Of a stretch of 64,000 nt of DNA, positions 1 through 41,758 are shown one piece after another (within the stretch, counting starts at the first letter, position 1; every line of letters starts with the position of its first letter). Where the stretch lies: assembly GCA_964559675.1 (NCBI GenBank), contig CAZLHJ010000001.1, forward strand, positions 56,285-120,284. Reading direction: 5' to 3'. Position numbers and translations under genes: made by a program. Source of the stretch: Candidatus Woesearchaeota archaeon. GTDB lineage: Archaea; Nanobdellota; Nanobdellia; Pacearchaeales; GW2011-AR1. Under the pieces are notes generated by a model that worked only from the letters and a program-made list of their open reading frames with translations, had not been told where the DNA came from and made no database searches.

Positions 1-160
1 TAATATAATCTTCAAATTCAACCCCTAATTTTTGCTTAAAGTTTTCTTTAACATCTATCTCAGTAATTACTCCAAATCCTTCCTTTTTCAGAGCTTCTTT
101 AACTAAACTAATTACCTCATTAAATTCTATTTCAAGCTCGATTTTATCTCCAATTCTCAT
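1..160 (-). CDS. DUF302-family protein, 5' portion only (gene runs off window start)
   Basis: Reverse-strand translation from ATG at 160-158 gives MRIGDKIELEIEFNEVISLVKEALKKEGFGVITEIDVKENFKQKLGVEFEDYI, matching the DUF302 pattern GFGV..EID....F...LG.....Y.ILG. Start overlaps the stop of the upstream cupredoxin gene (ATGA). Confidence 0.5.
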   Translation of the reverse strand, partial: MRIGDKIELEIEFNEVISLVKEALKKEGFGVITEIDVKENFKQKLGVEFEDYI

Positions 161-588
161 TCTACGATTATCTTCCCTGTACCCATTCCCATTGAGCATG
201 CAAAAGTGTAAGTCCCTTTCTTTGTAGGTGTGAACTCAACTGTATCTTGAGGAGTTCTCAAATATTCTCTAACTCCAAATTCTCTAATTGTGAAATCTCT
301 AAAGCATCCATATACACTAGAGTCTAAAGATATACTAACTGGCTGATTAACTTTAACTTTAACTGTATTAGGGTAATAATTATAATTTTTCATTCCGATA
401 ACCACTTCTTGAATTTCACCACTCCCAGAATTTCCAGAGCCAATTAAATCTTCTCCTCTAGATTCTCCAGAACCTAACATAATGTATCCTGCTATGATTA
501 TCACGACAAATATTCCTATCAAATACAAAGTATTCTTTTTAATTTTCATTGGAATAACACACTCCTCGGACCAAACACAATCATCCAT
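157..588 (-). CDS. cupredoxin-like domain protein, N-terminal membrane anchor
   Basis: N-terminal TM helix. C-terminal domain YYPNTVKVKVNQPVSI...TFACSMGMG resembles the cupredoxin_1 fold (PF13473-like: PGtYeyyCs...). Confidence 0.55.
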   Translation of the reverse strand: MDDCVWSEECVIPMKIKKNTLYLIGIFVVIIIAGYIMLGSGESRGEDLIGSGNSGSGEIQEVVIGMKNYNYYPNTVKVKVNQPVSISLDSSVYGCFRDFTIREFGVREYLRTPQDTVEFTPTKKGTYTFACSMGMGTGKIIVE

Positions 589-1229
589 GTAGTAATAATA
601 GTAAGAACAAAACTCAATATAATTGTTATCATATTATCTTCAGTATGCTCTCTTTCTCTTCCACGTGTTTCAGTATAAATCATATAATTAAGCCCAATCA
701 CAATAATTGCAGATATAAACCAAACAACTATTCCTGCTAATTTCAAATTATCATTAATCATCATCACTGCAGTCATAGCACCCATTAATCCGCCCATGAA
801 TCCTGCCATTGTTCCCTCCATGAAACCCATAACTCCACAACATTTCCCATTCCAAATACCAAATAAAATTCCGCTTGACATTCCTATAATGCTTCCCCAG
901 AACATTCCATTAGTAGAAGCAACAAAAAATCCTGGAAGAAATCCTGCAATCATTCCAATTGTCATTCCAATCATCATTCCAGACATACACGCGAAATGTT
1001 TGTAAGCTCTAACCTGCCTTACAGAAGGAAGTATAATAGCATAACTCAAGATTGCAAAAAAGATGAAAAAGCCATACTTAGGAATAAAGCTATCTATTTC
1101 TCTAAGCTTCATAAAATATAAAATGCTTAAAACTATAAACGAAGTAAGTAGTGAAATGAATACGGTTTTTACCAATTCGCCCTCAACCCCATCATTATTC
1201 AGAGATTTTACAAATTCTTTAAACGACAT
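546..1229 (-). CDS. Met/Gly-rich polytopic membrane protein (possible Cu(I)-handling)
   Basis: Multiple TM helices carrying repeated M-x-G-M motifs (MSGMMIGMTIGMIAG, GMFWGSIIGMSSG, GVMGFMEGTMAGFMGGLMGAM). The 5' end overlaps the next gene; the true start may be an internal Met. Confidence 0.5.
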   Translation of the reverse strand: MSFKEFVKSLNNDGVEGELVKTVFISLLTSFIVLSILYFMKLREIDSFIPKYGFFIFFAILSYAIILPSVRQVRAYKHFACMSGMMIGMTIGMIAGFLPGFFVASTNGMFWGSIIGMSSGILFGIWNGKCCGVMGFMEGTMAGFMGGLMGAMTAVMMINDNLKLAGIVVWFISAIIVIGLNYMIYTETRGREREHTEDNMITIILSFVLTIITTWMIVFGPRSVLFQ

Positions 1230-1260
1230 AAATTTAATAAAAAAATCAATTATTTAAGTG

Positions 1261-1290
1261 CTTGGGTGAAACTAGTTTCGGATATAAAAT
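1261..1290. promoter_or_regulatory. conserved operator-like element containing palindrome GAAACTAGTTTC (copy 1)
   Basis: GCTTGGGTGAAACTAGTTTCGGATATAAAAT lies about 40 bp upstream of the start of 546..1229. A near-identical element is at 5114..5145. Confidence 0.5.
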
Positions 1291-1482
1291 TTATTTTCCG
1301 TATCCTCCTTCCTTCATCCAATCTTTTTTCATCTGTTCTTTAGAAGTTTTATCTTTTTCAATATGCATATTAGTGCTAGGAGCTTTCCCCCTTTGTCTTG
1401 AACTTCCTTTATTGTCTTTCTCTTTCCTTTTTTTCACATTTCTTCTCGCCCCAGAAGTAAGATGTTTTCCTTTATGCCTCAT
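1291..1482 (-). CDS. small highly basic protein (hypothetical)
   Basis: 63-aa Lys/Arg-rich ORF inside the cluster; no recognisable domain. Confidence 0.3.
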   Translation of the reverse strand: MRHKGKHLTSGARRNVKKRKEKDNKGSSRQRGKAPSTNMHIEKDKTSKEQMKKDWMKEGGYGK

Positions 1483-1526
1483 TAATATTGATGGGATAAC
1501 GACAATAAATCATTTCGTATTATTTT

Positions 1527-2033
1527 TTATACATCAATCTTACAAATTCCGACAATAGATTTACTAGTGAGATAAATCGAAAGTAATAAAATTAAAATTC
1601 CAACTAATTGTAATTCAATCCCTTTAAACGGAAAATAAGTAAGTGCGAGAGGCATCCCAATCAAACCAAATAAAAATGCTCCACATGTAGGGCATCCGAC
1701 ACCGAAAGCACTAACTCCAGATATAATAAATCCAAAAAAACCTTTCTTCTCTACTTTCTTATAATTATTAAATTTAAATAAAATCATAGAAAATAAAATC
1801 CCAGATAATCCAGATATAAACAATATGCTCATTATGCTCGCGCTCACAAATAATTCTCCAGACATCATGGCAGATATCCAAATGCTATAATTGGCTACTT
1901 TTGATACAAGTAAATAATAAAGAAAAGAAAAAGAAATTAATCCAAAAATTAAACCTATTACTTTATATTTCCAATTACTAAAAACTAAATTCATAGATTT
2001 TTGAACACATTCAAATCGTTTCATTCTAAACAC
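1527..2033 (-). CDS. membrane protein with intramembrane CPTCG (CxxC) motif
   Basis: Four to five TM helices; GVGCPTCGAFLFGLIGMP sits inside a helix. Overlaps the neighbouring genes. Confidence 0.5.
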   Translation of the reverse strand: MFRMKRFECVQKSMNLVFSNWKYKVIGLIFGLISFSFLYYLLVSKVANYSIWISAMMSGELFVSASIMSILFISGLSGILFSMILFKFNNYKKVEKKGFFGFIISGVSAFGVGCPTCGAFLFGLIGMPLALTYFPFKGIELQLVGILILLLSIYLTSKSIVGICKIDV

Positions 2034-2233
2034 TCCTTGTAGATATTAGGATGGTGGCCCATATGTTCTCTCCATTCTTCGTCAGTATATCCTGGTGGAG
2101 TTTGACATCTCTCATCAACAGATTTTCCAGAATCTCTCCAAGCCTGTATTATTCCTGGGAAAAAGGTTAAGATTAACAATGATAAAATTAATACACCCAT
2201 AACTACATAGATAATTATTTCTTTTTTATTCAT
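2021..2233 (-). CDS. small single-TM protein with C-terminal Cys/His-rich tail
   Basis: TM helix followed by ...ERCQTPPGYTDEEWREHMGHHPNIYKECLE. ATGA overlap with the downstream gene. Confidence 0.4.
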   Translation of the reverse strand: MNKKEIIIYVVMGVLILSLLILTFFPGIIQAWRDSGKSVDERCQTPPGYTDEEWREHMGHHPNIYKECLE

Positions 2234-2694
2234 TTTTTGCCCCCTTTCATTTTCATTAAATGATTTCTCATAATAAATATTCCAAATAGATTAGAGACAA
2301 TTCCCAAAACTAAAAACCAGTCTTGATATTTAGTTACGAATATAGCTAACCCTGAAAATCCTACAAATGGAATCACATTAAATAAGAAATGACTACAACA
2401 AGCTAACATGCTTCCAGCTGATACTCCTCCCGTTCCAATTGCTGTTCCGGTTACTTGGGCAGAATGCCTTATTGCACTAAAAATTCCAATCTGAGCTCCA
2501 AATCCAATAGCAAGGGGAAAAAATAAGAACCATTTGCTTCTTAAACTCAAGAGAGCAAACTCAAAACCTTGAAAGATAGAAACGATAGAAACATAAAAAA
2601 TTAATAATCCAAGCCCAGCTAACAACCCAATTAAAACAGGTTTATTCATTTCTCCTTTTTCACTCTTTTCAACATTACAACAATCCATTACCAA
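2230..2694 (-). CDS. membrane protein, N-terminal MDCC and intramembrane ACCSH motif
   Basis: Begins MVMDCCNVEKSE; polytopic; carries GSMLACCSHFLF. Confidence 0.5.
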   Translation of the reverse strand: MVMDCCNVEKSEKGEMNKPVLIGLLAGLGLLIFYVSIVSIFQGFEFALLSLRSKWFLFFPLAIGFGAQIGIFSAIRHSAQVTGTAIGTGGVSAGSMLACCSHFLFNVIPFVGFSGLAIFVTKYQDWFLVLGIVSNLFGIFIMRNHLMKMKGGKK

Positions 2695-3131
2695 TTTTTA
2701 CAACACTCCACTATTTTTTTCATAACTTTTCCAACTTTCCCATTAGATCTATAAAAATAAATTAATCCAAATAAAATCCAAACTACTAACGCAATAACTC
2801 CTTCCTGAATTAAATTTTCAAGAGTGAGTATATAATATCCTATTAATAACAATGTTAAAATGAAAGGTAACCTAAATACCAATAATTCTTTCCGTGCCTT
2901 TTTCTCAAAAGTATAAAATATACCTAATAAAGTCATACCTATCATTATCCCAATCAATAATAAATTATTAAACAGTCCTTGATAAAATAAAACTAATAAA
3001 ATTATCCAAGTTAATGAAAAAGCTAAACAAATTGAACAAATACCTTCTTTTGTTTTTTTAGGAAGAAATTCCCTAAATATTAATATTAAAAAAAATAAGC
3101 CGATTATTAAAAATAATATCTTCTCAATCAT
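2688..3131 (-). CDS. membrane protein, C-terminal ECC motif
   Basis: Polytopic; ends KKIVECCKNW. Overlaps the flanking genes by 4 to 7 bp. Confidence 0.45.
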   Translation of the reverse strand: MIEKILFLIIGLFFLILIFREFLPKKTKEGICSICLAFSLTWIILLVLFYQGLFNNLLLIGIMIGMTLLGIFYTFEKKARKELLVFRLPFILTLLLIGYYILTLENLIQEGVIALVVWILFGLIYFYRSNGKVGKVMKKIVECCKNW

Positions 3132-3646
3132 GTTAAATTTAATTGAATTAAACCTCCAATTATTATTAACATAATTAATGTAAGAAGAGTTCCTTGAAAT
3201 GGAATTATCTTTCCGTTCCTTGCCTTAGTTATCTTTCTACTTAATGTAGGCGAGATAAATACAATCAATGCCCCGAGTAAGCTAGCTCCCAATGAATAAT
3301 CTACTGCATAGGTAGTTCCATATTCTCCCATGAAAGACAAATATAATGGTCCAATCGCCTTGAAAATTGGAAGCAAAGGTAACAAGGTAGCTAAGAAAAC
3401 TACTATAATGATTACACTCTTTTGATATGGGATATATTTCTTATTAACTAATCTAGAGAACCACATTCCCATAGACATCGAAAATGCTCCAATAAATAAA
3501 GCAACTACTACTTTACTCACTCCAAGCCAAACTGCCCCTGCAGCAGCCGCTCCCGCTCCAATTGTGCATAATGGACAATGAGCCATTACACTACTAGCTA
3601 AGAAAATAGGAATTAAAAAAATAAAAAATAATTTTTTAAATGCCAT
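3128..3646 (-). CDS. membrane protein with HCPLC (CxxC) motif in first TM helix
   Basis: MAFKK...SSVMAHCPLCTIGAGAAAAG; polytopic. Confidence 0.5.
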   Translation of the reverse strand: MAFKKLFFIFLIPIFLASSVMAHCPLCTIGAGAAAAGAVWLGVSKVVVALFIGAFSMSMGMWFSRLVNKKYIPYQKSVIIIVVFLATLLPLLPIFKAIGPLYLSFMGEYGTTYAVDYSLGASLLGALIVFISPTLSRKITKARNGKIIPFQGTLLTLIMLIIIGGLIQLNLT

Positions 3647-3647
3647 C

Positions 3648-4121
3648 TTAAATTCTCATGAACTCCTGATAGCTTCCATCATTATTTACTGAATAAATGA
3701 CAAAGTCTCCTCTTTTATTTCCAGGCATTCCCGGAGATCCTTCAGGCATTCCAGGCATAGCAATTCCCTTTATATTAGGTTTTTCTGAGAGCAATTTCTC
3801 AACTGCCTCTAAAGGTATATGTCCTTCAACAAAATAATCTCCTATAATTGTCGTGTGACAACTTCTAAGTTCATTAGGAACCCCATACTTATCTTTAATA
3901 GGGTCTACACTTTGCCCATTAATCTCTTCCGCTTTAAGTGTCCCCTTCCTCTGGAAATAATTGACATATACGTCACAACATCCGCATGTAATTGATTTGT
4001 ATATTTTTACATCCACTTGTGCATCAATATTTTCAAAAGAACCTGAACTCTTTCCATTTAAGGCAAAAAATCCTAAAATAAGGATGACTACAACTCCAAT
4101 AAGTAAATAAGTTTTTTTCAT
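3648..4121 (-). CDS. DUF411/CopG-family copper-binding protein (secreted or membrane-anchored)
   Basis: Signal anchor followed by YKSITCGCCDVYV, GVPNELRSCHTTIIGDYFVEGHIPLEAVEKLLSEKPNIKGIAMPGMPEGSPGMP. This is the CxCC, SCHT and GH(I/V)P signature of DUF411/CopG proteins from copper-resistance operons. Confidence 0.85.
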   Translation of the reverse strand: MKKTYLLIGVVVILILGFFALNGKSSGSFENIDAQVDVKIYKSITCGCCDVYVNYFQRKGTLKAEEINGQSVDPIKDKYGVPNELRSCHTTIIGDYFVEGHIPLEAVEKLLSEKPNIKGIAMPGMPEGSPGMPGNKRGDFVIYSVNNDGSYQEFMRI

Positions 4122-4130
4122 TTTATAATT

Positions 4131-4367
4131 TTAGCAACCTCCTACCATTCCGCCGTACGATGATGCTGCACTTTTTGCAACACTTGTTGCACTCTGAACT
4201 CCAGAGCTTCCAACTGCACCTGCCTTGAATGTAAGGAATAATGCCAAAAAGAATAATGCAGCTATAACTATCCACATTATAATTCTTCTATCCATTCTAA
4301 AATTTCCTCCTTTCACTTTAATTTCTTTACAACAATTATCTTCTTCTTTAGTCTTACAACAATCCAT
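4131..4367 (-). CDS. small Cys-rich single-TM protein with C-terminal GGMVGGC
   Basis: MDCCKTKEEDNCCKEIK, one TM helix, a Gly/Ser/Ala linker, and the C-terminal ...SSYGGMVGGC*. Shares this terminus with 4413..5084. Confidence 0.5.
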   Translation of the reverse strand: MDCCKTKEEDNCCKEIKVKGGNFRMDRRIIMWIVIAALFFLALFLTFKAGAVGSSGVQSATSVAKSAASSYGGMVGGC

Positions 4368-4412
4368 GTTACATTAAATGGGAAACGGATGCTACCCAAT
4401 AAAAAAACAAAT

Positions 4413-5084
4413 TTAGCATCCTCCGACCATACCTCCTCCAGATGATTTACCTTGTTCAATCCCTCTGTATAAATTAGAAGCTAAATTGACATAATCTTTT
4501 GAATCTATTCCGTTTGCTTCTAAGACTTGAGCTTTCTGTTCATGAATCCCTGGGAAGAATAACACTTTCCACTTTCCAAGTTCAGATAAGATCTCTAAGT
4601 CGCTCATTTCAGGATTATTAATAAGCAAATATTTAGCTAGTCCTCTCATAGCATAACTATGTGCGCAACCGCATGCTCTTTGCCCATTACTAAATATAAT
4701 TGAATCAGCTCCACAGCAGTATTCACAACTAATTGAACCTGCAATTCTAATATACCTCTCCATCTGTTCAGAATTTAATTCTAAGTCTTCATGTTGAGAT
4801 AATTTCTTTATAGTTGAGTCCGCTAATCTAGGATTTGAAGCAGAAACATCATCATATTTGACCCCAAGTTTCTCACCATATACTGCAGGAACTCCGGTTG
4901 GAATTATGTCTGAAGCAGAAACGGTTCCTACTCCAGTGGCTACTGATCCTCCAGAACCTCCAGTATAAATTCTTCCAGCATTAAATACTAAGACTAAAGC
5001 TAGTATCGCAATAATGCCGAGTTGAATATAAAATTCAGTATTGGTCTTTTCCCCTCCTTTCATTTCACTTTTATGTGTTTTCAT
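4413..5084 (-). CDS. membrane-anchored Cys-rich protein with C-terminal GGMVGGC
   Basis: N-terminal TM helix, a GS-rich linker, the Cys cluster SCEYCCGADSIIFSNGQRACGCAH, and the C-terminus ...KSSGGGMVGGC*. Confidence 0.55.
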   Translation of the reverse strand: MKTHKSEMKGGEKTNTEFYIQLGIIAILALVLVFNAGRIYTGGSGGSVATGVGTVSASDIIPTGVPAVYGEKLGVKYDDVSASNPRLADSTIKKLSQHEDLELNSEQMERYIRIAGSISCEYCCGADSIIFSNGQRACGCAHSYAMRGLAKYLLINNPEMSDLEILSELGKWKVLFFPGIHEQKAQVLEANGIDSKDYVNLASNLYRGIEQGKSSGGGMVGGC

Positions 5085-5113
5085 GCTTTCTCAAAGAAAT
5101 AAAAATTATATAA

Positions 5114-5145
5114 GCGCTTTTGTGAAACTAGTTTCAATATCAAAA
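5114..5145. promoter_or_regulatory. conserved operator-like element containing palindrome TGAAACTAGTTTCA (copy 2)
   Basis: GCTTTTGTGAAACTAGTTTCAATATCAAAAG sits in the divergent spacer between 4413..5084 (-) and the regulator 5190..5678 (+). Confidence 0.5.
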
Positions 5146-5189
5146 GCTAAAAACGAAAAGTTCTTAAACCCTAAATTCTCCTCGATAAT

Positions 5190-5678
5190 ATGGAAAACAA
5201 GTTTGTAGGTTATCTTTTATTAGGGATCTCAATATTATTTATAATCATAATTCTAATGTTTAATTCAACTTTAAAGGAAATAATTTCCTCATCTTGTGGA
5301 GCAGAACATTCAATTGTTTGTCCTATGAATCAAACAGTAAATCAACAAACTTATCTTGCATTAAGTATTGTAGGATTACTATTAATTGTAGGCACAGTAT
5401 TAATATTTTCAAAACCTCAAAAAGAAATAATCTTTAAAACAAAAACCATAGAGAAAAAAGCTCAAAAGAAGAAGATAGATACTTCAGAATTAAAATCAGA
5501 AGAAAAATCAGTCTTTGAGTTAATTCAGAATAATAAGGCAGTGTTCCAAGCAGATTTGATTGAAAAGACTGGATTCGGAAAAGCAAAAATGACTCGAATT
5601 ATAGACCGATTAGAAGGCCGTGGTTTAGTCGAAAGAAAAAGACGTGGAATGACGAATGTTGTTGTCTTGAAGGAATAA
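5190..5678 (+). CDS. membrane-anchored winged-helix (MarR/TrmB-like) transcriptional regulator
   Basis: N-terminal TM helix, an extracytoplasmic segment with two Cys (SSSCGAEHSIVCP), a second TM helix, then a C-terminal wHTH: SVFELIQNNKAVFQADLIEKTGFGKAKMTRIIDRLEGRGLVERKRRG. Confidence 0.7.
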   Translation: MENKFVGYLLLGISILFIIIILMFNSTLKEIISSSCGAEHSIVCPMNQTVNQQTYLALSIVGLLLIVGTVLIFSKPQKEIIFKTKTIEKKAQKKKIDTSELKSEEKSVFELIQNNKAVFQADLIEKTGFGKAKMTRIIDRLEGRGLVERKRRGMTNVVVLKE

Positions 5679-5680
5679 AT

Positions 5681-6295
5681 TTACCTAGACACAAAAACAA
5701 TATCTTCATCAGTGCCGTTTGATCTTCTAGCTTTTTCAAAAACTTTCTTTTTAATCTTAAGATCTTTCTCAGGCAAATATGGTCCAGAATTATTCACATA
5801 AATATATTCATCGTCATATCCAGTTATCGGAACAAAATGCCCATTATATTTATCTTCACTTCCACCAAGAATAATATTCCAATTCAATAAAACAAACGAG
5901 ACGCAATTCTCAGAAATCTTTTCTTCTATTTCTTTTAACTCCAATTGCTTCTCAAATAATTGAACTCCTGCAGATTTACTCTCCTCAATCAATCTATTTA
6001 CTTTTTCTTTTAATTCTTCTAATCCCTCAGTCTTTTGCTTATAATAATCTAGATTGAAGTGTTCTGGATTAAATTCTAAAACCTTTGAGAAAAATTCAAC
6101 TCTAAATCCAGATAATGAAAGTGCCTTTGCTAATCCTAAAGTGGTAGTTGCCCCTCCCCTTTCAGGATAGATAATCTCTTTATTTTTTCTTCATTGAATT
6201 CCTTGCCAAAATAAGAAAAAATCATCTTTAATGTAATCGGGCCACAATCATTAGAATTTTCTGGCTGAATATAAAGGGGAATATCTAATTTCATA
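5681..6295 (-). pseudogene. C39-like (BtrH/papain-fold) cysteine peptidase interrupted by a 1-nt frameshift in a T7/A7 run
   Basis: Upstream frame: MKLDIPLYIQPENSNDCGPITLKMIFSYFGKEFNEE (the C39_2 catalytic-Cys motif QxxNDCGP). Downstream frame, which is the listed ORF 5681..5992: ...GHFVPITGYDDEYIYVNN (the His motif). The two frames meet at tattttttct, 6181..6190. Confidence 0.7.
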
Positions 6296-6388
6296 ACTCT
6301 TTCAATTTAATTTCATATATAAGAATTTCCATATTCGTCATAAAAAAACATCTAGATTTTAAGAAAGATTTTTGTTCTATTTTTACTA

Positions 6389-7354
6389 ATGAATTTTAAA
6401 AAATATTTTGATAGGGTGCAAAATTCCGGAACTGCCTTAGTTATCTTATTCATAGCATCACTCTTATTTTTTTATTTCATCTCAGATATAGTATTCACAA
6501 TTCTAGGTGGAATCATAATCGCCATAATTCTTTCTACACTAATATCTTTCACTTCCAGAAAAACTAATCTCTCGTGGATGTTTAGTTTTATAATCGTATT
6601 GTTTATAGTCCTCATAGTTTTAGGTTCCATTTCATATTATTTATCTTCAACAATAATTTCACAATCCACTCAGCTTTTCAGCGAAATCTCTTCCCAAGCA
6701 ACAAATCTATTATCAGAAATAGAAACTAGGTTCGGAATATCTATCTCTAATTTAGATTTCTTCAATCTTATTAGGGACGTATTATCCAACAATCTTATCT
6801 TTTCAGTTCTTACTTATCTTTCATTATTTCTTATTGCAATTTTCTTAGGGATTTATTTCTCATACTCTCCCAATGATTACTTCAACGATTTCAATAAGAA
6901 TGGAAAAATGAAATCTGCGCTTCTAAGGTCCAGAAAGGAATTAAAGAATTGGGTTATCGGCACATTATACTCTATGATTATAATTGGAACAGTTACAACT
7001 ATCGCATTATTAATCTTAGATGTAAGATACGCTATAGTTTTAGGATTATTAGCGGGCCTCCTCGAATTTATCCCATATGTAGGTCCAATCATCTCATGGG
7101 TTCCAGCTTTTATTATAACTGTAGTTCAAGACCCAATTTTAGGAGCTTACATAACTATCTTATATATTGGAATTCAACAACTTGAAAGTCATCTAGTGGT
7201 TCCAATTGTTCAAAAAAGAATGGTTTATCTCGAACCAGGCTACATCTTAATTGCAGAATTGTTCTTCGGACTCATATTCGGATTCTTTGGATTATTATTC
7301 GCAGTTCCGACAGTAGTTGTCTTAAGGGCAATATATCAAGAGCTCAGAAAATAA
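6389..7354 (+). CDS. AI-2E family transporter (PerM/UPF0118)
   Basis: Eight-TM topology and the characteristic C-terminal IPYVGPIISWVPAFIITVVQDP motif. Confidence 0.7.
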   Translation: MNFKKYFDRVQNSGTALVILFIASLLFFYFISDIVFTILGGIIIAIILSTLISFTSRKTNLSWMFSFIIVLFIVLIVLGSISYYLSSTIISQSTQLFSEISSQATNLLSEIETRFGISISNLDFFNLIRDVLSNNLIFSVLTYLSLFLIAIFLGIYFSYSPNDYFNDFNKNGKMKSALLRSRKELKNWVIGTLYSMIIIGTVTTIALLILDVRYAIVLGLLAGLLEFIPYVGPIISWVPAFIITVVQDPILGAYITILYIGIQQLESHLVVPIVQKRMVYLEPGYILIAELFFGLIFGFFGLLFAVPTVVVLRAIYQELRK

Positions 7355-7402
7355 CTTGTTTAGAAAAATTAATTTTAAATACCATTAAATCTTAGATATT
7401 AA

Positions 7403-7798
7403 ATGCAAAAAGAGGAACCAGAGCCCAGAAACTATGACTCGACCCAAAATTTTGCAGACGCTTTTAGATCTATTTGGACAGGAATAAAAACAACTACTAT
7501 TTATGCAACAATTAGTTTAGGATTATTAGCTGGAGGAGGTTATATCGGTAATAAAATAATTAATCATTATTCTGATAAAATTACACAAGAAATAAAAGCA
7601 GAAACTGAATCTTTAGACTCGTCTCGTCAAAATATCTACAGATTACAAGATTCTTTGGAATCTCAAGAAAATAAAAACAAGAAGCTATTAGAACAATCTT
7701 CTTCAAACCTCCAAGGTTTAGAATTATTAGTAAAAGATCTCAACAATAAATTGGGACATACAAATGATTTAATTGCAAATAATTCAGAGAAAAATTAA
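7403..7798 (+). CDS. hypothetical membrane-anchored coiled-coil protein
   Basis: One TM helix followed by Gln/Ser/Leu-rich heptad-like sequence. Confidence 0.4.
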   Translation: MQKEEPEPRNYDSTQNFADAFRSIWTGIKTTTIYATISLGLLAGGGYIGNKIINHYSDKITQEIKAETESLDSSRQNIYRLQDSLESQENKNKKLLEQSSSNLQGLELLVKDLNNKLGHTNDLIANNSEKN

Positions 7799-9372
7799 TA
7801 TCTTTTAACTCTACCGTATCTATCTCTTCCGCTTGATCGTCCTCTATCTCCTCTGTCTCGACTTCCAGATCCTTCTCCATCTCTAGATCTTGAACCAAAA
7901 CTTCTTCCGGATGGTCTTCCTCCACCAAATGATCTTCCACCACTAGGTCTTCCACCGAATGATCTGCCTCCAGATCTATTTCCAAAACTTCTTCCAGGCG
8001 GCCTTCCACCAGATGATCCACTACTTCCTTCTCCATCTCTAGATCTTGAACCAAAACTTCTTCCTGATGGTCTTCCTCCACCAAATGATCTTCCACTTCC
8101 TTCTCTTCTATCTGAGAAACTCCTCTCTCTTCCACCGAAACTTCTTCCAGCACCTCTGTCACCTCTTCTTCCGTCTCTTTGCCCATCACGACCTCCTCCA
8201 AATCGTCTATTTCCTCCTCTAGAACCTCTATCATTATTGAACATCTTAAAATTGACATCTAATGTCTCTAATTCTGGAAGTTCAACATTCTGTATATTTA
8301 ATGAAGAATCTTGTTTAACACTTCTGAAATTTTCATAATCTCTTGGAGAAACTAAATTAACTGCAATACCTTCTTTTCCAGCTCTTGCTGTTCTTCCAAT
8401 TCTATGTACGTATTCAGTACTATTTTTCGGAATATCATAATTATAAACGTGTGAAATTCCTTTAATATCTAATCCTCTGGCGGCAACATCTGTACATACT
8501 AATGTTAGAACTTCTTGTGAATGGAATGATTTGATTATATCATTTCTTTTATTCTGCGTTAATCCTCCATGAATTGCCATAGAATGAATTTCATATCTCA
8601 TTAAGTTTCTAACTACCATATCAGTATTTCTTCTTGTGTTACAAAATACCATTACTAATCCCTTTCTTTCCTGCTTTAATAAATGAACAAGTAATGAGAA
8701 TTTCTTATCTTGAGGAACATCATAATAGACTTGTTTCAATTTTGAAGGATCTACATATGATTCAACTTCAACTAAAACTGGGGCCTTCATATATTTTCTA
8801 GAAATTCTTTGGATATCTTGAGACATTGTTGCTGAAAACAATAAGGTCTGTCTTTCTTCAGGACACATCTTAATTATATTTTCAACATCTTTAATGAATC
8901 CCATTTCAAGCATTCTGTCTGCCTCATCTAAAACTAGGTATTTCACTTTCTCTAAATTTAATGTTCTTCTATCTAAATGATCTAAAATTCTTCCAGGAGT
9001 TCCGACAACAATCTCTGCTCTTGCTAAAGCATCAATCTGCGGACCAATAGCAACTCCACCATAAACTTCCTTAACTCTTAATGAATGGTGCCTTGAAAAG
9101 TTTCTAAGACTCTGAGCAACCTGCTCTGCTAATTCTCTTGTAGGTGTTAAGATTAAAGCTTGAATTCCAGCTCCTCTTTTAACGTTATCAATTATTCCAG
9201 CTCCGAATGCTAATGTCTTTCCAGATCCGGTTGAAGAACTACCTAAAACGTCTTTCCCTTGTAATACTAAAGGAATTGTTTTTTCTTGAATCTCACTAGG
9301 CGTTTCGAATTTTGCTTCTTCAATGGCCTTTAAGAGATTTTCACTTAATTTTAATTCTCTAAATTTTTCCAT
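7795..9372 (-). CDS. DEAD-box ATP-dependent RNA helicase with about 170-aa C-terminal RGG/GRSFGG repeat tail
   Basis: Motifs GSGKT, PTRELA, DEAD (VLDEADRMLEMGF), SAT, HRIGRTARAG. The C-terminus is made of repeated GRSFGG/RDGEGS units. Confidence 0.9.
   Translation of the reverse strand: MEKFRELKLSENLLKAIEEAKFETPSEIQEKTIPLVLQGKDVLGSSSTGSGKTLAFGAGIIDNVKRGAGIQALILTPTRELAEQVAQSLRNFSRHHSLRVKEVYGGVAIGPQIDALARAEIVVGTPGRILDHLDRRTLNLEKVKYLVLDEADRMLEMGFIKDVENIIKMCPEERQTLLFSATMSQDIQRISRKYMKAPVLVEVESYVDPSKLKQVYYDVPQDKKFSLLVHLLKQERKGLVMVFCNTRRNTDMVVRNLMRYEIHSMAIHGGLTQNKRNDIIKSFHSQEVLTLVCTDVAARGLDIKGISHVYNYDIPKNSTEYVHRIGRTARAGKEGIAVNLVSPRDYENFRSVKQDSSLNIQNVELPELETLDVNFKMFNNDRGSRGGNRRFGGGRDGQRDGRRGDRGAGRSFGGRERSFSDRREGSGRSFGGGRPSGRSFGSRSRDGEGSSGSSGGRPPGRSFGNRSGGRSFGGRPSGGRSFGGGRPSGRSFGSRSRDGEGSGSRDRGDRGRSSGRDRYGRVKRY
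7873..8096. repeat. about 68-bp near-perfect direct repeat (two copies 156 bp apart) inside the helicase RGG-tail coding region
   Basis: cttctccatctctagatcttgaaccaaaacttcttcc(g/t)gatggtcttcctccaccaaatgatcttccac at 7873..7940 and 8029..8096. Confidence 0.8.
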
Positions 9373-18148: not shown

Positions 18149-18730
18149 TTAGTTTCTAACTTGCAAAACTTTATTTTGTTGATAAAATTGCTCAACACTA
18201 TCTTCAATTCCCATAGTTAACCACCAAGGAGGATTCTGGGAGAAATCTCTAACTTCTCCTTTATACTTTATCTCTCCTCTAAAAATCATCTCAGGTAAAT
18301 GGAAAGGTATTTTTTGTGGACCAAATCTATCTCCTTCCTTTTCAGGCCTTACATGAACCAAATGGTCTCCAGAAAACCAAACTCCATTTCTCAATACTGC
18401 TCTTCTAATAGCAACATCGTGTATATGATTATTAGGCGTTTCCTGAACATCATAGCTAAATCTTGCCAGAATATTTGATTCTGCAGTGTCATAAACATCA
18501 GATGCAGTATTCACAAGCCAAGTTAATTCTCTTTTATTATTTTTGAAAAATTCGTAATAAGCATCTTCATAGATTTGAATTGCTTCGGGCCTCTCAAGAA
18601 CTAATCCTCCAAATTGCCACGCAATTCTCCAATTCCCTTTACCATATCGATTATTCCATCCCGATTGAATTTCATCTCTACTAGTTCCCAAATATCCAGG
18701 TCTATCGATGGTCTGCCAAATCATATTCAA
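18149..18730 (-). CDS. hypothetical protein
   Basis: 193-aa Trp-rich ORF; no recognisable motif. Confidence 0.4.
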   Translation of the reverse strand: MNMIWQTIDRPGYLGTSRDEIQSGWNNRYGKGNWRIAWQFGGLVLERPEAIQIYEDAYYEFFKNNKRELTWLVNTASDVYDTAESNILARFSYDVQETPNNHIHDVAIRRAVLRNGVWFSGDHLVHVRPEKEGDRFGPQKIPFHLPEMIFRGEIKYKGEVRDFSQNPPWWLTMGIEDSVEQFYQQNKVLQVRN

Positions 18731-18772
18731 GAATCAGATCTACGGAATTTAAAGATTATTGATTTAAATTAA

Positions 18773-21025
18773 CTATTTCTTCCTAACGTCTTTTTCAGAA
18801 TTATCTCTTTTTTCAGAATCGGCCGTTTCTTTCATTTCCTTATTCTTGCCCTTATCTTCTGTATCTTCTTTCTTGGCTTTTTCTTCTTTCTTGGCTTTAT
18901 CCATTATAGGTTTATTTATAGATTTTGAAACTGTTTCCAAAGCTCTATCAAAATCATCCTTTGTAATTTTGAAATCTTCTTTACCTTCCTTACTCTTTCT
19001 CGAATAAACTCTTTTAATTGCATTCAATCCCGCGTTTCTTGTAATTGCTTCAATATCTGCTCCAGTCCAACCTTCCGTTTTATCCGAATAATCTTGAATT
19101 TTTACATCTTTATCCAGAGGCATTCCCCTAACTTTAACTTCAAATATTTTTTCTCTTGTCTTCTTCTCAGGAACTTTCAATTCAACAATTGAATCTATTC
19201 TTCCAGCCCTTAATAATGCAGGATCGATTAAGTCTTGTCTATTTGTAGCTGCAACAATCATTACTTTCTCAAGCTCTTCAACACCATCTAATTCAGTAAG
19301 TAATTGATTTACAATCTTATCCGTTGAATCACTAAAGCTCATTCCCCTCTGCTTAGATATCGAATCAAATTCGTCAAAGAAAATTATACAAGGTGCAACT
19401 TGTCTAGCTTTTTTGAAAATTTCCCTTACATGTTTTTCAGATTCTCCAACCCATTTACTCACCAACTCTGGACCTTTAACAGAAATGAAATTTGCATTAG
19501 CTTCTGTCGCAACCGCCTTAGCCAATAATGTCTTACCAGTTCCAGGAGGCCCAGTCAATAAAACTCCTTTACTAGGTTTAATCCCAGCTTTAACAAATAA
19601 ATCTGGCCTCATCAATGGAAGCTCAATTAATTCTCTTAATTTCTCTTTTGCCTCTTCCAATCCACCAATATCTTCCCACGAGACATGTGGTTTATTAATC
19701 AAAACTTCCCTCATTGCACTAGGTTCAACAACTTTCAATGCATCGCTAAAGTTTTGTCTTGAAACTTTTATCTTATCTAAAATTTGAGTTGGAACTTTTT
19801 CTTCTATATTTTTCAATTCTGCAAAATATGGCTTGATCGCTTTCAATGCTGCTTCCTTACATAAAACTTGAATATCTGCTCCAGTATACCCCATTGTTTT
19901 TTGAGCAATCTCATCAAAATTAACATCTTTATCCAGAGGCATTCCTCTTGTGTGAATTTGTAGGATCTCCCTTCTTCCGTCTTCATCAGGAGGATTAATT
20001 CTTAACTCTCTATCAAATCTTCCAGGTCTTCTTAATGCTTCATCAATATCGTCCGGCCTATTTGTTGCAGCCATAACTACTACTTGTCCTCTGCTCTTTA
20101 AACCATCCATTAAAGTTAATAGTTGAGCAACAATTCTTTTTTCAGTTTGATCTGTTCCTTCTCCCCTCTTAGGAGCAATAGAGTCTATTTCATCAATAAA
20201 AATAATTGACGGCGCATTCTTATCTGCTTGCTCAAAGATTTCTCTTATATGCTTTTCAGACTCTCCGTAATATTTACTCATAATTTCTGGCCCAGCAATA
20301 GAAAAGAAACTCGACTCTGTCTCTCCAGCAACCGCCTTAGCCAATAATGTCTTACCAGTTCCAGGAGGCCCAGTCAATAAAACTCCTTTAGGTGCTCCAA
20401 CTCCTAATTTCTGGAAAACTTCGGGATGTTTCATTGGAAGTTCTACCATCTCTCTAACTAATTCAACTTCATTTTTCAAACCACCAATATCTTCATAACT
20501 AATTCCAACTGCTTTCAAATCTCCTGCATATGGAGTATCAGAAACTTTAATTTTAGTTTTTGGAGTTACAATAACATATCCTTTAGGATCTACTTTAGAA
20601 ACTACATACGCCAATCTAGTACCAAATACATCAATTACTATTTTTTGTGCTTGAGACAATGGCCTATGTAGTAATTTTGTATGGAAATATTCTGTCGGAT
20701 CATCACTAAATCTAACTTGTTGCAATGGACTCAAAACTACGTTTTTAGCTTCTAAAATTTTAGCTTTGGAAACTTTAATATTATCTCCAATACTCGCTCC
20801 AATATTAGATCTTGTAGTTCCGTCTAATCTAATAATTGAATCTCCATTGTCTTCACTAACTGATCTCATCGCCTTAACTAATCCGGAACTCTTTCCACTG
20901 ACCTCAACTAAATCTCCCGAGCTAATTTGCATTTTAGCCATAATCTTAGAAGGAATTCTAGCAATACCTTTATCGATATCTTCTTGCAAAGATTCTTTTA
21001 CCTTAAGCTGAATTTCTTGACTCAT
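18773..21025 (-). CDS. cdc48: CDC48/VCP/p97-like AAA+ ATPase (N domain plus two AAA domains) with Lys/Glu-rich C-terminal tail
   Basis: Two Walker A motifs ([20 protein letters not shown], both copies), Walker [10 protein letters not shown] / IIFFDEFDS, second-region-of-homology Args, and an N-terminal double-psi barrel region. Confidence 0.95.
19510..19571. repeat. 62-bp perfect intragenic repeat (copy 1; copy 2 at 20329..20390) covering the Walker A regions of D1 and D2
   Basis: caaccgccttagccaataatgtcttaccagttccaggaggcccagtcaataaaactccttta is identical at both sites, while the flanking DNA diverges. Confidence 0.85.
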
Positions 21026-41329: not shown

Positions 41330-41758
41330 TTATCTCTCTTCTTCTTCTTCAGATTCTTCGTCAGAATCATCAGACTCTTCATCAGATAAATCTTCTTCAG
41401 AATCATCATAGTCAATTTCTAATTCACTTAGAACTTGTAAAATCTTATCTAACTTAGCATTAATTTGGTCAAATTGCTCAGAAGATACTCCTCCAGCAGA
41501 TGATCCGTGTTTCTTAGCATCAAAGCAGTTATCACATAATACTGGTTTACTTCCAGTTGGTCTAAATGGAACTTGACATCTCTTTCCACATTTATCACAT
41601 GTAGCATCAAACATTTCAGTAGTACCATCTCTTCCAAATGATCTTCCTCTTCCTCTATCTCCACCGAAGCTTCTTCCTCCGCCAGATCTACCTCTATCTC
41701 CACCGAATGATCTTCCACCACCGGATCTTCCTCGACTATCTCTTCCAAAGTTTCCCAT
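41330..41758 (-). CDS. small protein with RGG/GRSFGG N-terminus, C4 zinc ribbon and acidic Ser/Asp/Glu tail
   Basis: GGGRSFGGDRGRSGGGRSFGGDRGRGRSFG ... CDKCGKRC...CDNC ... DDSEEDLSDEESDDSDEESEEEEER. Confidence 0.6.
   Translation of the reverse strand: MGNFGRDSRGRSGGGRSFGGDRGRSGGGRSFGGDRGRGRSFGRDGTTEMFDATCDKCGKRCQVPFRPTGSKPVLCDNCFDAKKHGSSAGGVSSEQFDQINAKLDKILQVLSELEIDYDDSEEDLSDEESDDSDEESEEEEER

Follow-up and report, generated by a model that had tools for sequence, protein, structure and literature searches.

A conserved copper-handling gene island of ultra-small archaea that links copper-export genes to undescribed cysteine-tagged membrane proteins

One end of a 64,000-nucleotide stretch of DNA from a DPANN archaeon (the window) carries a compact block of genes for small cysteine-rich proteins, which raises the question of whether the block is an undescribed copper and thiol-redox island. 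The sequence-only reading that proposed this listed eleven minus-strand genes overlapping by 4–43 nt, and the open reading frames and cysteine motifs that it named are all present where it placed them (Table 1). Ten of the minus-strand genes, from 5084 down to 157, are conserved; together with a membrane-anchored wHTH regulator, which is encoded divergently, they make up the block. The count of eleven appears to include a spurious Lys/Arg-rich open reading frame of 63 aa, called by gene finders. This frame was rejected and is probably not a gene: tblastn found no homologue in any of 20 related loci, Pfam gave no match, and it lies within a 297-nt promoter spacer, the length of which differs among loci (56 to ~300 nt). 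The actual overlaps are 1-4 nt (ATGA type); the value of 43 nt is an artefact of the longest frame of the cupredoxin gene, the conserved start of which is M14. In the full contig, the block runs on beyond the window edge into genes for DUF302, CopZ and a Cu-type P1B ATPase. The full island contains 13 genes, and the window carries part of them.

Table 1. Genes, operators and promoter elements of the island (coordinates in the window)
Feature	Position	Strand	Motif or remark
DUF302 gene, 5' part	1..160	-	cut by window edge; 132 aa in full contig
CupA-type cupredoxin-fold Cu(I) chaperone	157..549 (longest ORF 157-588)	-	Pfam and PDB matches
g227	546..1229	-	MxGM repeats and CC
TTAAATAA box	1250-1257		follows operator 2
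Operator 2, CGAAACTAGTTTCA (coding strand)	1267..1280	.	palindrome with one mismatch; 51 nt upstream of g227 ATG
63-aa ORF	1291..1482	-	probably not a gene
g165, polytopic	1527..2024	-	GCPTCG
g70, single-pass	2021..2233	-	extracytoplasmic motif
g152, four-TM	2230..2688	-	MDCC; ACCSH
g147, five-TM	2688..3131	-	CSIC; C-terminal ECC
g172	3128..3646	-	AHCPLC
CopG (DUF411)	3648..4121	-	CGCC, SCHT, GHIP, PGMP; Pfam and PDB matches
g78, single-pass	4131..4367	-	MDCC...MVGGC
g223	4413..5084	-	CEYCC...CGCAH
BRE/TATA-like element of unit 1, AAAGCGC TTATATAA	5106..5120	-	read from sequence
Operator 1, TGAAACTAGTTTCA	5123..5136	.	perfect 14-bp palindrome between the g223 promoter and that of the divergent regulator
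Membrane-tethered wHTH regulator, 162 aa	5190..5678	+	Pfam DUF7343/MarR
HMA/CopZ, 70 aa	outside window, after DUF302	-	full contig
Cu-type P1B ATPase, 646 aa	outside window, after HMA/CopZ	-	full contig

The gene order is kept in ~18 of 21 species-level DPANN loci at 40-78 % amino-acid identity, and also in an unrelated archaeal contig of 54 % GC (L032). This conservation far exceeds chance, and the synteny that the proposal called for was thus found. The island is partly accessory, because g227 and the CupA-like gene are present in only 7 of the 21 loci. Related islands additionally hold genes for ArsR regulators, Met-rich proteins, TRASH-like proteins, HMA-membrane-cupredoxin fusions, rhodanese partners, and DsbA-like (Thioredoxin_4, 1.8e-37), Trx-like and DsbB-like proteins. 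Seven families gave no sequence match in Pfam, NCBIfam or PDB (g172, g147 and g227 matched neither Pfam nor PDB, and no model of the three collections covers the g152 domain), and literature searches found no description of the island. The view that the small cysteine membrane proteins stand outside described systems is therefore upheld, and no membrane ORF matched a well-characterised family of unrelated function.

The copper core is readily assigned. The DUF411 protein is by sequence a clear CopG (Pfam DUF411, 86.7 bits against a cut-off of 27, 8.4e-25), as had been proposed; it is found in 18 loci, is predicted to be membrane-anchored and extracytoplasmic, and aligns in all its motifs (CxCC, SCHT, EGH, PGMPxGSPGM) with the solved CopG structure PDB 6WIS (E 9.8e-20). 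The cupredoxin-like protein was also recognised correctly (Cupredoxin_1, 46.3 bits against a cut-off of 27, 4.7e-12) and can be resolved further as a CupA-type chaperone with an N-terminal TM anchor. Its best PDB matches are Streptococcus pneumoniae CupA (2mry/4f2e, E 1.1e-06), with which it shares the Cu(I)-chaperone ligands C...CxMxM, here Cys (GC) ... Cys-Ser-Met-Gly-Met; the CopA N-terminal domain 4f2f (7e-05) also aligns at the ligands. A role as blue copper protein or electron carrier was rejected on account of these ligands and the lack of His ligands. The DUF302 gene was confirmed (1.4e-24), and the P1B ATPase exceeds the cut-offs of the copper-ATPase model TIGR01511 (593 bits against 397) and of TIGR01525 (643 against 346), with CPC, N-x6-YN-x4-P and M-x2-SS-x5-N legible in its sequence.

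CopG has been proposed to hand Cu to multicopper oxidases (PMC7558416), and the island could on that ground be a maturation pathway that loads copper into an extracellular cuproenzyme instead of a detoxification system. A small Cu-oxidase_2 gene lies nearby in L032, and membrane-anchored chaperones are typical of assembly lines. However, the island in the window encodes no cuproenzyme, the 64-kb window encodes no CxxCH protein, the His-less cupredoxin matches a chaperone, and joint regulation with copA and copZ is in keeping with efflux. We regard this maturation role as highly improbable.

The regulator agrees with the membrane-anchored wHTH protein described earlier. Its predicted layout combines two TM helices at the N-terminus and an extracytoplasmic loop with a winged helix of DUF7343/MarR type in the cytoplasm (DUF7343, 36.9 bits against a cut-off of 27.6, 3.3e-09; also MarR_2). 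The loop carries a conserved Cys-x7-Cys-Pro-Met, both cysteines of which are kept in 15 orthologues; a Cys pair is also present in four of the five paralogues. The regulator gene adjoins g223, divergently in most loci and co-directionally in a few. In the window, operators 1 and 2 lie 51-52 nt ahead of their transcription units, and each is followed by a BRE/TATA element. Operator 1 recurs with at most one mismatch upstream of the g223 start in all 17 other g223-bearing loci, 12 of which have the perfect form; most keep the spacing of 51-52 nt, and five have 70-89 nt. In L032 it is perfect at a spacing of 61 nt. The BRE/TATA-like element, a putative promoter, keeps its offset from the palindrome in related loci. 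The ATG of g223 is ~26 nt from its centre, a distance that suggests a leaderless mRNA, and both transcription units are probably leaderless. The arrangement at operator 2 is also seen upstream of g227 in L005 and L008 and of HMA-membrane-cupredoxin fusion genes in L018 and L019, and in L011 and L017 g172 is preceded by a separate operator and promoter. In most related loci, operator and BRE/TATA recur, mostly at 51-52 nt, before g223, g227, g172 and genes for cupredoxin fusions. The two transcription units of the island make up a single regulon.

The topologies of the remaining proteins are those expected from the positive-inside rule. The gene g223 encodes a protein with a putative N-terminal TM anchor, an extracytoplasmic domain with invariant C-E-Y/F-C-C-G ... 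C-G-C-A-H, and a flexible Gly/Ser tail ending in an invariant MVGGC; its helical CxxC fold is CcmH-like, with the CxxC in the equivalent loop. At least one g78-type gene follows each of the 18 g223 genes with an intact upstream end. The g78 protein has an optional cytoplasmic MDCC..CC, one TM helix, an Ala/Ser-rich extracytoplasmic linker and again an invariant C-terminal MVGGC, an ending found on 23 small proteins. Of the small proteins that had been called polytopic, g172, g147, g152 and g165 are so, whereas g78 and g70 are single-pass. The N-terminal MDCC noted earlier is present in g78 and g152, but it is an optional tag of a minority of orthologues and not defining. The Met-rich g227, reported as a polytopic protein of M-x-G-M repeats and found as such, carries CMSGMMIGMTxGM ... 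NGKCCG ... MEGxMAGFMGGxMGAM; the CupA-like gene always follows it directly with an ATGA overlap, and L032 encodes both as one fused protein of 297 aa.

The g172 protein has a signal or anchor segment up to the cysteine motif (...A|HCPLC, invariant AHCPLCT). Four TM helices that include an SMSMGM stretch follow, and the C-terminus is predicted to be extracellular. The protein is fused at this end to rhodanese (Pfam 6.6e-09) in L011 and L017. This fusion, together with DUF302, the DsbA-like genes and the many exposed cysteines, would suit an island whose targets are reactive sulfur species (persulfide or polysulfide) instead of metals. Genes for persulfide dioxygenase, SQR and TusA are nevertheless absent, the conserved core is made of copper-specific components, and rhodanese is carried by only two of 15 g172 genes; such a function seems extremely improbable.

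The g147 protein has a conserved CxxC at the cytoplasmic end of TM2, overlooked in the first description, and a cytoplasmic C-terminal tail (E)CC(K/R)x(W/F). In L006, L008, L012 and L015, a soluble 160-aa protein ending in LLECCxE stands in its position. Terminal Cys tags (MVGGC, ECC, GGxC, MDCC) are shared by unrelated families, and their recurrence together with this exchange fits a flexible-arm metal hand-off.

The g152 protein carries an invariant GSMxACCSHFL..IP in TM3 and cytoplasmic terminal cysteines, N-terminal (MDCC) here and C-terminal (KMKGGxC) in most orthologues. A profile search retrieved 847 representative clusters; many are long forms that add a TM helix and a beta domain, and several have an N-terminal HMA fusion. 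The ACCSH protein is a member of a large unmodelled family that is HMA-fused in other organisms. The gene g70, present in 14 loci, always follows g152 and encodes the motif C-x3-5-G-x-T-x-E-x-W-x-E-H-M-x-H-H-P-x2-Y-x2-C, predicted to be extracytoplasmic. A paralogous pair of g152 and a g70-like gene occurs again in L015, L020 and L021; L032 has, in place of g152 and g70, a long g152 to which a TM helix and an extracellular domain are fused. Bacterial relatives of g152 adjoin CsoR and YHS genes and also MerF, which adjoins an HMA-g152 protein. MerT, MerC, MerF and MerE are likewise small membrane proteins and need a Cys pair in the first TM helix for function (PMC5715351). The small Cys-pair proteins might accordingly be Mer-like importers that take in mercury or a different soft metal (Hg, Cd, Au) and bring it to cytoplasmic thiols, where it would be detoxified or sensed, and the operon does encode an HMA protein. 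However, the match of g152 to merT_RC607 is weak (E 0.19; 12 bits against a cut-off of 130), no MerA or MerB homologue is found among the annotated or clustered genes of related loci, the ATPase shows the P1B-1 copper signature in full and scores above the cut-off of the copper model, and CopG and CupA-like proteins are copper-specific families. Import of this kind is very unlikely.

In the g165 protein, an invariant G-x-G-C-P-T-C-G-A sits at a putative intramembrane helix break; the protein also has a PLAL..LPF.G.E loop and a C-terminal Cys on the cytoplasmic side. Its structure model, of moderate confidence, gave no fold match. Paralogues have DsbA-like neighbours in L032, six DPANN loci and two Saccharibacteria loci; in one of the Saccharibacteria loci, the same operon holds a glutaredoxin-like gene. 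These neighbours raise a more serious alternative, in which g223 to g165, a cassette of eight genes, would chiefly encode an extracytoplasmic thiol-disulfide oxidoreductase pathway comparable in function to DsbD/CcdA-CcmG-CcmH or ScsABCD. Electrons would cross the membrane through a CxxC membrane protein (g165, perhaps g147) and reach the CcmH-like g223, CopG and g172, the cysteines would be redox centres and not copper ligands, and the sole reason for co-regulation with copper efflux would be that copper catalyses the formation of harmful disulfides. The CcmH-like fold of g223, the DsbA-like, Trx-like and DsbB-like genes among the islands, the two rhodanese fusions and the outward-facing Cys pair of the regulator are consistent with it. 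In contrast, HMA metal-binding domains are fused to g152 relatives, vicinal CC pairs and Met- or His-rich motifs typically bind metal and make poor redox pairs, and a soluble protein with the same CC tail can replace g147. Neither sequence nor fold similarity to DsbB, VKOR, CcdA or DsbD is seen, only one Cys pair of g165 is universally conserved, and short g165 paralogues head ArsR-CopZ-CopA units. A pathway mainly for thiol redox is thus rather unlikely.

It is fairly probable that the region is a regulon that exports and buffers copper(I) and includes a thiol relay and thiol-redox maintenance. The suggested Cu(I) handling is supported by CopZ and the P1B ATPase (TIGR01511), the 6WIS match, the CupA ligands and the HMA-fused ACCSH family, and the suggested thiol-redox component by the CcmH-like g223 and the DsbA-like, Trx-like and rhodanese partners. 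Fusions join partners (HMA::g152, g152::TM and extracellular domain, g227::CupA-like, g172::rhodanese). Since no relative of known function was detectable for the novel families, we infer their metal binding solely from motifs and context. The CxxC motifs could act in redox chemistry, in metal binding or in both. Besides copper, the regulon probably handles silver, and any soft cation (Ag, Hg, Cd, Au) could be the metal.

At the level of single proteins, CopZ would bind cytoplasmic Cu(I) and the CopA-type P1B ATPase would pump it out. The outward Cys-x7-Cys-Pro-Met loop of the regulator may sense extracytoplasmic copper or copper-driven thiol oxidation, and the regulator would act via TGAAACTAGTTTCA, just upstream of the BRE/TATA of both units (g223 to g165; g227 to copA). 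On the outer side of the membrane, thiolate, thioether and imidazole sites would capture and buffer copper. They would be provided by CopG (tetranuclear Cu cluster), by the CupA-like Cys2Met2 chaperone, which would be coupled to the permease-like, Met-rich g227, by the His/Cys peptide g70, by HCPLC at the N-terminus of g172, and by the flexible MVGGC tails on g223 and g78. Cys pairs of g152 (CC-S-H), g165 (CPTC) and g147 (CxxC and CC tail), in the membrane or at its cytoplasmic face, would join both sides. They may hand Cu(I) across by ligand exchange, as Mer transporters do with Hg(II), or they may carry reducing equivalents, with g165 as the best candidate, and so keep outer cysteines reduced, including the CcmH-like CxxC domain of g223.

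The cellular role is well supported. The island is a real, widely conserved copper-handling set of ultra-small (DPANN) archaea, in which ordinary copper-export genes and about seven undescribed protein families, mostly membrane-bound and Cys-tagged, share one DNA switch.

In this archaeon, a copper-type efflux and chaperone core is co-regulated with a conserved cassette of small proteins whose Cys, Met and His motifs lie within the membrane and to either side of it. The genes g223, g78, g172, g147, g152, g70 and g165 (named by the amino-acid length of their products) and a DUF411 gene form the cassette, and g227, a Cupredoxin_1 gene and a DUF302 gene belong to a second unit that extends to copA. 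The ORFs and motifs named in the sequence-only reading were all present in the ORF listing. Its count of eleven genes was lowered, because a 63-aa ORF (1291-1482) was rejected as spurious, tblastn having found no homologue of it in any related locus. Its 43-nt overlap gave way to an ATGA overlap with the g227 stop codon once the conserved cupredoxin start was placed at Met14. Gene junctions are 1-4-nt overlaps or 1-45-nt gaps, plus a single 297-nt spacer. Genes past the window edge were read on contig DYHJ01000002.1 (GCA_020724245.1), an exact-sequence match to the window. On this contig, genes for a 70-aa HMA protein (GMHCASCA) and for a P1B ATPase of 646 aa come after the DUF302 gene; the junctions are 4-nt overlaps or 1-nt gaps. 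Transmembrane (TM) topologies were worked out by hand from the positive-inside rule. No Rfam RNA family was detected in positions 1-8000.

Features of the island and of other parts of the window (motifs of the minus-strand island genes from the ORF listing)
Feature	Position	Strand	Motifs and remarks
wHTH regulator	5190-5678	divergent from the minus-strand genes	
Operator 1	5123-5136		perfect palindrome, 52 nt ahead of the g223 ATG
g223	4413-5084	-	SCEYCCG...ACGCAHS; end GGMVGGC
g78	4131-4367	-	MDCC..NCC; single TM helix; end GGMVGGC
DUF411 protein	3648-4121	-	CGCC, SCHT, EGHIP, PGMPEGSPGMPG
g172	3128-3646	-	VMAHCPLC
g147	2688-3131	-	CSIC; C-terminal VECCKNW
g152	2230-2688	-	MDCC; MLACCSH
g70	2021-2233	-	C..PPGYTDEEWREHMGHHP..C
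g165	1527-2024	-	GVGCPTCGA
Operator 2	1267-1280		one mismatch, 51 nt ahead of the g227 ATG
g227	546-1229	-	Met-rich; KCCG
Cupredoxin_1 protein	157-588	-	longest ORF; conserved start Met14 at 549
DUF302 gene	start 160	-	runs past the window edge; first 53 codons within the window
103-aa ORF	5681-5992	-	matches Guanylate_cyc_2 and the C-terminus of C39-like models
52-aa ORF	6136-6294	-	matches the Peptidase_C39 N-terminus
Acidic-repeat ORF	7740-8258		helicase-tail repeat DNA in another reading frame
DEAD-box helicase	7795-9372	-	C-terminal tail of about 150 aa of RGG/SFGG repeats
142-aa ORF	41330-41758	-	same GRSFGG repeats as the helicase tail

Several genes of the island encode recognisable copper proteins. 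The DUF411 protein matched PF04214 with 86.7 bits (cut-off 27) and aligned to the solved CopG structure 6WIS (E 9.8e-20), in which every cluster motif (CGCC, SCHT, EGH and PGMPxGSPGM) was matched. Across 18 orthologues CGCC, SCHT and EGH do not vary, and the PGMP..PGM segment hardly does. The family model and the structural alignment thus both confirm the earlier assignment, and the protein is a member of the CopG family that retains the predicted CxCC and Met ligands of the Cu cluster. CopG contributes to resistance against copper and binds a tetranuclear Cu cluster, for which CxCC and Met residues serve as ligands (PMC7558416). The Cupredoxin_1 protein (PF13473, 46.3 bits, cut-off 27) is closest among solved proteins to Streptococcus pneumoniae CupA (2mry/4f2e, E 1.1e-06) and to the CopA N-terminal domain (4f2f, 7e-05). 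Its GC...CSMGM segment is in register with the PC and CGMNM of CupA (Cys...Cys-x-Met-x-Met), and this set is conserved in g227-linked orthologues. The domain contains no His residues. The His-Cys-His-Met set of type-1 blue copper proteins such as plastocyanin and azurin is absent, and the plastocyanin and nitrosocyanin models, whose cut-offs are 88 to 143 bits, gave about 17 bits. Since His ligands are missing and the GC...CSMGM segment aligns on the CupA ligands, the protein is predicted to be a Cu(I) chaperone of the CupA type, and a role in electron transfer as a blue copper protein was rejected; the earlier description as cupredoxin-like stands for the fold family and is refined by the ligand alignment. 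The full-length DUF302 gene, read at the reference locus L001, matched PF03625 with 86.1 bits (cut-off 23). The P1B ATPase outside the window matched TIGR01511 (copper-translocating P-type ATPase) with 593 bits (cut-off 397) and contains the motifs CPC, N-x6-YN-x4-P and M-x2-SS-x5-N, which are established marks of the Cu(I)/Ag(I) P1B subgroup.

Domain searches confirmed DUF411, Cupredoxin_1, DUF302 and DUF7343/MarR, and Pfam and NCBIfam gave no match for the other eight ORFs. When Pfam was run on 49 orthologues and paralogues and on 43 g223 relatives, only DUF411 and Cupredoxin_1 were matched in the minus-strand cassette. PDB sequence-profile searches with alignments of g223, g172, g147, g227, g152 and g165, and also with g70, returned no meaningful match. 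At least seven conserved families have no Pfam or NCBIfam model, and their genomic context gives them a testable function. The MVGGC end is found on every g223 (18) and on every small single-pass protein after it (23), and on no other protein encoded in the window. The g223 family comprises 1820 sequence clusters in public data, and the g152 family 847 clusters in a profile search of 1.84 billion representatives. The conserved core of g152 is SM-x-ACC(A/S)H. Many of its relatives, at 280-370 aa, possess one more TM helix and have W-x-G-x-PPGGHHR in a C-terminal domain, and several carry one or two N-terminal HMA domains. One bacterial relative adjoins YHS and CsoR genes, and another adjoins MerF and a small thioredoxin. 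The gene g70 invariably comes after g152, and paralogous pairs of g152 and g70-like genes also occur.

In the hand-inferred topology of g147, TM2 bears a CxxC where it reaches the cytoplasm, and the ECC tail also lies on that side. In four loci (L006, L008, L012 and L015) the exact slot of g147 between g172 and g152 is taken by a soluble protein of roughly 160 aa, which ends in LLECCxE and has no informative Pfam match. The g172 proteins contain an invariant A|HCPLCT behind a signal-like segment, and in two loci a C-terminal rhodanese. The N-terminal MDCC noted earlier is present, as a portable tag that characterises no single family: it occurs on 11 of 1279 locus ORFs, only on g152, g78, DUF411 and one unassigned ORF, and the tag MDCC-x(8-25)-K-G-G sits ahead of the usual start Met in the three unrelated families. 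Close to their cytoplasmic ends, g223, g152 and g165 paralogues share a recurring (M/L)KGG motif.

The g165 family includes 77 database clusters, none with a Pfam domain, and the source names that give an organism are all Pacearchaeota, Nanoarchaeota or unclassified archaeon. Three forms were distinguished: the cassette copy, a paralogue of about 190 aa and a paralogue of about 148 aa. The longer paralogue adjoins a DsbA-like gene (Thioredoxin_4, 1.8e-37) in six DPANN loci, in both Saccharibacteria loci and in the distant locus L032; a glutaredoxin-like gene is present as well in one of the Saccharibacteria loci. The shorter one heads ArsR-MetGly-rich-CopZ-CopA units. Families g165 and g152 are unrelated by hhalign.

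In Saccharibacteria, a DsbA-like gene, a g165-like CxxC membrane protein gene and a glutaredoxin/NrdH-like gene form one tight operon (L022, 2397-3946), and a pair of g165-like and DsbA-like genes is located at L023 (8494-9793). These genes may represent an unrecognised envelope thiol system in CPR bacteria. A metagenome scan for CPR relatives of g165 found only near-identical copies of L022. Beyond the window edge, about 2 kb past copA, L001 encodes a thioredoxin-like protein with a TM anchor and FGAYWCSHCQNQK (18643-19020, minus strand); it resembles the Trx domain fused to bacterial VKOR. Members of this family directly follow the P1B ATPase in L004, L018 and L019, and a DsbB/BdbC-like gene adjoins a member in L006.

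Alignment of the intergenic regions between the regulator gene and g223 from ten loci revealed a perfect palindrome, TGAAACTAGTTTCA, followed about 7 nt later by a BRE/TATA-like element, AAAGCGCTTATATAA. In a shuffle control, at least two palindrome matches occurred in 16 of 100 shuffles, and the two sites of the window alone are not statistically compelling; the case for an operator comes from position and from conservation across loci. The palindrome lies 51-52 nt ahead of g223 in most loci and 70-89 nt in five. It lies 51 nt ahead of g227, of g172 where a gene is inserted before g172, and of genes encoding HMA-membrane-cupredoxin fusions. The shared operator defines a single regulon of two transcription units. 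With roughly 26 nt between the TATA centre and each ATG, transcripts of both units are probably leaderless. Fusion genes of about 480-502 aa were seen in L014, L018 and L020. The L018 gene, read through, encodes an HMA domain, a polytopic domain with HCxxMCGG, a C-terminal Cupredoxin_1 domain and a Gly/Cys-rich tail, GGGTCGMGGGCGCGG, and has the same TGAAACTAGTTTCA operator upstream.

The likely binder of TGAAACTAGTTTCA is the adjacent regulator, a protein matching PF24034 (DUF7343, 36.9 bits, cut-off 27.6) and MarR_2 (31.3 bits, cut-off 27). It is predicted to span the membrane with two TM helices, to expose a conserved C-x7-C-P-M in an outward loop and to keep its wHTH in the cytoplasm, a topology deduced from its Lys-rich linker. 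Tethered in this way, the regulator would sense the outer compartment. The membrane-tethered wHTH and TGAAACTAGTTTCA represent a compact regulator-operator pair that is conserved across very distant archaea.

A scan at one genome per species yielded 21 loci. By tblastn and ORF clustering, the gene order regulator / g223 / g78 / DUF411 / g172 / g147 / g152 / g70 / g165 / ... / g227 / cupredoxin / DUF302 / HMA / P1B is kept in about 18 of them, at 40-78% identity. Synteny in other DPANN and archaeal genomes is thus borne out, and the 54% GC contig L032 extends it; the organisation of the island is more than chance. Retention of 13 genes despite the tiny genomes of DPANN argues for strong selection. 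L032 (3008-9865 of a Logan SRR22387949 contig) contains the whole cassette, with a TATA box and the identical perfect operator TGAAACTAGTTTCA. MVGGC ends are present on its g223-like protein and on an 83-aa protein, AHCPLC occurs in its g172-like protein, its g147-like protein ends in RCCGQW, and its g165-like gene (GCPAC) adjoins a DsbA-like gene. A long g152 of 301 aa stands in place of g152 and g70, which argues that g152 partners an extracellular metal-binding module, and g227 and the CupA-like domain form one fused protein of 297 aa, which argues that g227 partners the chaperone. These fusions argue that the cassette is an old, transferable unit. The natural fusions HMA::g152, g227::CupA and g152::extracellular domain predict interaction partners. 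Also located near the L032 cassette are a Cu-oxidase_2 gene of small size and a gene for a PadR protein that has a Cys-rich tail.

The island shares components or logic with several known systems. Sulfolobales cop clusters contain CopA with a TRASH-type CopM/CopT regulator pair. The island resembles them in having an archaeal copA, a small metallochaperone and a dedicated regulator, and TRASH-like small proteins occur in related islands; it differs in regulator type (a membrane-tethered wHTH), in operator and in a Cys-motif cassette without known counterpart. In the pneumococcal copY-cupA-copA operon, CupA and CopA are under a single copper-responsive repressor (PMC7558416), and a membrane-anchored cupredoxin-fold Cu(I) chaperone (Cys...Cys-x-Met-x-Met) likewise stands next to a P1B-1 CopA. 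The island has a membrane-tethered DUF7343 wHTH where the pneumococcus has CopY, and adds a separate CopZ, a coupled Met-rich g227 (chaperone-fused in L032) and eight further cassette genes; by the positive-inside rule its chaperone domain would face outward, whereas CupA is cytoplasmic. Gram-negative CopG (6WIS) belongs to the same family, with all cluster ligands kept and linkage to copA as here (PMC7558416). The island protein differs in its N-terminal TM anchor, its occurrence in an archaeon without an outer membrane and its fixed slot between MVGGC-tailed proteins and g172.

The island proteins have no significant sequence similarity to CcmH, the DsbD-CcdA branch or Scs, and when tested against family models and solved structures its membrane proteins proved unrelated to DsbB, VKOR and CcdA-DsbD. 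None of the 43 g223 family members matched CcmH/NrfF (PF03918) at E<=10, and hhalign against CcmH gave a probability of 2.4%. Compared with CcmH, g223 has extra cysteines (CxxCC, CGCAH) and the MVGGC tail. Annotated and clustered genes of the related loci include neither Ccm homologues nor heme genes. An assembly pathway for cuproenzymes is an unlikely reading, since the island in the window contains no cuproenzyme and the window no CxxCH ORF.

Transport of mercury would fit the likeness to MerT, MerC, MerF and MerE. Each of these is small and polytopic, a TM helix contains a vicinal or CxxC pair, and additional cysteines are cytoplasmic. The Mer transport proteins work with the HMA-fold partner MerP (PMC5715351), and relatives of g152 are fused to HMA domains. 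However, g152 scored only 12.1 bits against merT_RC607 (cut-off 130), no Pfam MerT, MerC or MerF and no PDB MerF match was obtained, the context is one of copper, and no MerA or MerB homologue was seen among annotated and clustered genes of related loci; the mercury reading is unlikely. A response to sulfur stress is also unlikely, because persulfide enzymes are absent. The whole island matches none of the pneumococcal cop, CopG-linked cop/cus, CcmH/DsbD, Scs or Mer systems, in agreement with the earlier statement that no described Cop, Cus or Dsb system corresponds to its set of small CxxC and CC membrane proteins. No description of the island was found in the literature on DUF411/CopG, DPANN copper, DsbA/VKOR in CPR or MVGGC.

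In the proposed copper pathway, CopZ and CopA would export Cu(I), and CopG, the CupA-like protein with g227, g70, the HCPLC end of g172 and the MVGGC arms would bind Cu(I) on the outer face and hand it on. Because of its HMA fusions, g152 is probably a soft-metal translocator. The DsbA and Grx neighbours make g165 the best candidate to carry reducing or oxidising equivalents to outer CxxC proteins, for example the putatively CcmH-like g223. For the CPTC, CxxC and HCPLC motifs, metal relay and electron relay cannot be separated on present data, and a purely thiol-redox function of the cassette has a low but appreciable probability. A bolder reading, advanced tentatively, is that the cassette represents an unrecognised membrane thiol machine of ultra-small archaea and bacteria. 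In this machine g165, with a single CxxC at an intramembrane helix break, would be a new class of transmembrane thiol-disulfide carrier partnering DsbA-like and CcmH-like proteins, the invariant MVGGC-COOH tails would be flexible-arm thiols that shuttle Cu(I) or electrons from one outer protein to another, and g152, with its HMA-linked CC(S/A)H, would represent a new family that translocates soft metals.

Outside the island, two adjacent ORFs (103 aa and 52 aa) together resemble one C39-like peptidase that looks split or decayed. A link of this peptidase to the GG-containing tails was rejected, as it is conserved in no related locus. Repeats of the DEAD-box helicase tail recur in a 142-aa ORF and, in another reading frame, in an acidic-repeat ORF. 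GC skew is strongly negative across nearly all of the window (-0.1 to -0.4) and switches sign near 58-60 kb, which could mark a shift in gene orientation or a replication landmark.

In sulfide chimney interiors dominated by Pacearchaeota, ultra-small cells bear a coat of the Cu(I) mineral Cu2O (PMC9209642). Speculatively, a Cu(I)-thiolate system that faces outward is a candidate for its molecular basis. Among islands for copper homeostasis this one is set apart by its distinctive terminal motifs, by an operator-regulator pair that is new and by seven or more families that are undescribed, and copper handling in DPANN archaea has not been described before. To our knowledge, the hosts of g165-type carriers are generally without quinones and canonical DsbB, VKOR or DsbD, and we know of no explanation of how envelope thiols are managed without them, which is a recognised gap. 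Transfer of electrons or Cu(I) from one side of the membrane to the other, if carried out by the CxxC membrane proteins, would fill this gap in envelope thiol management.
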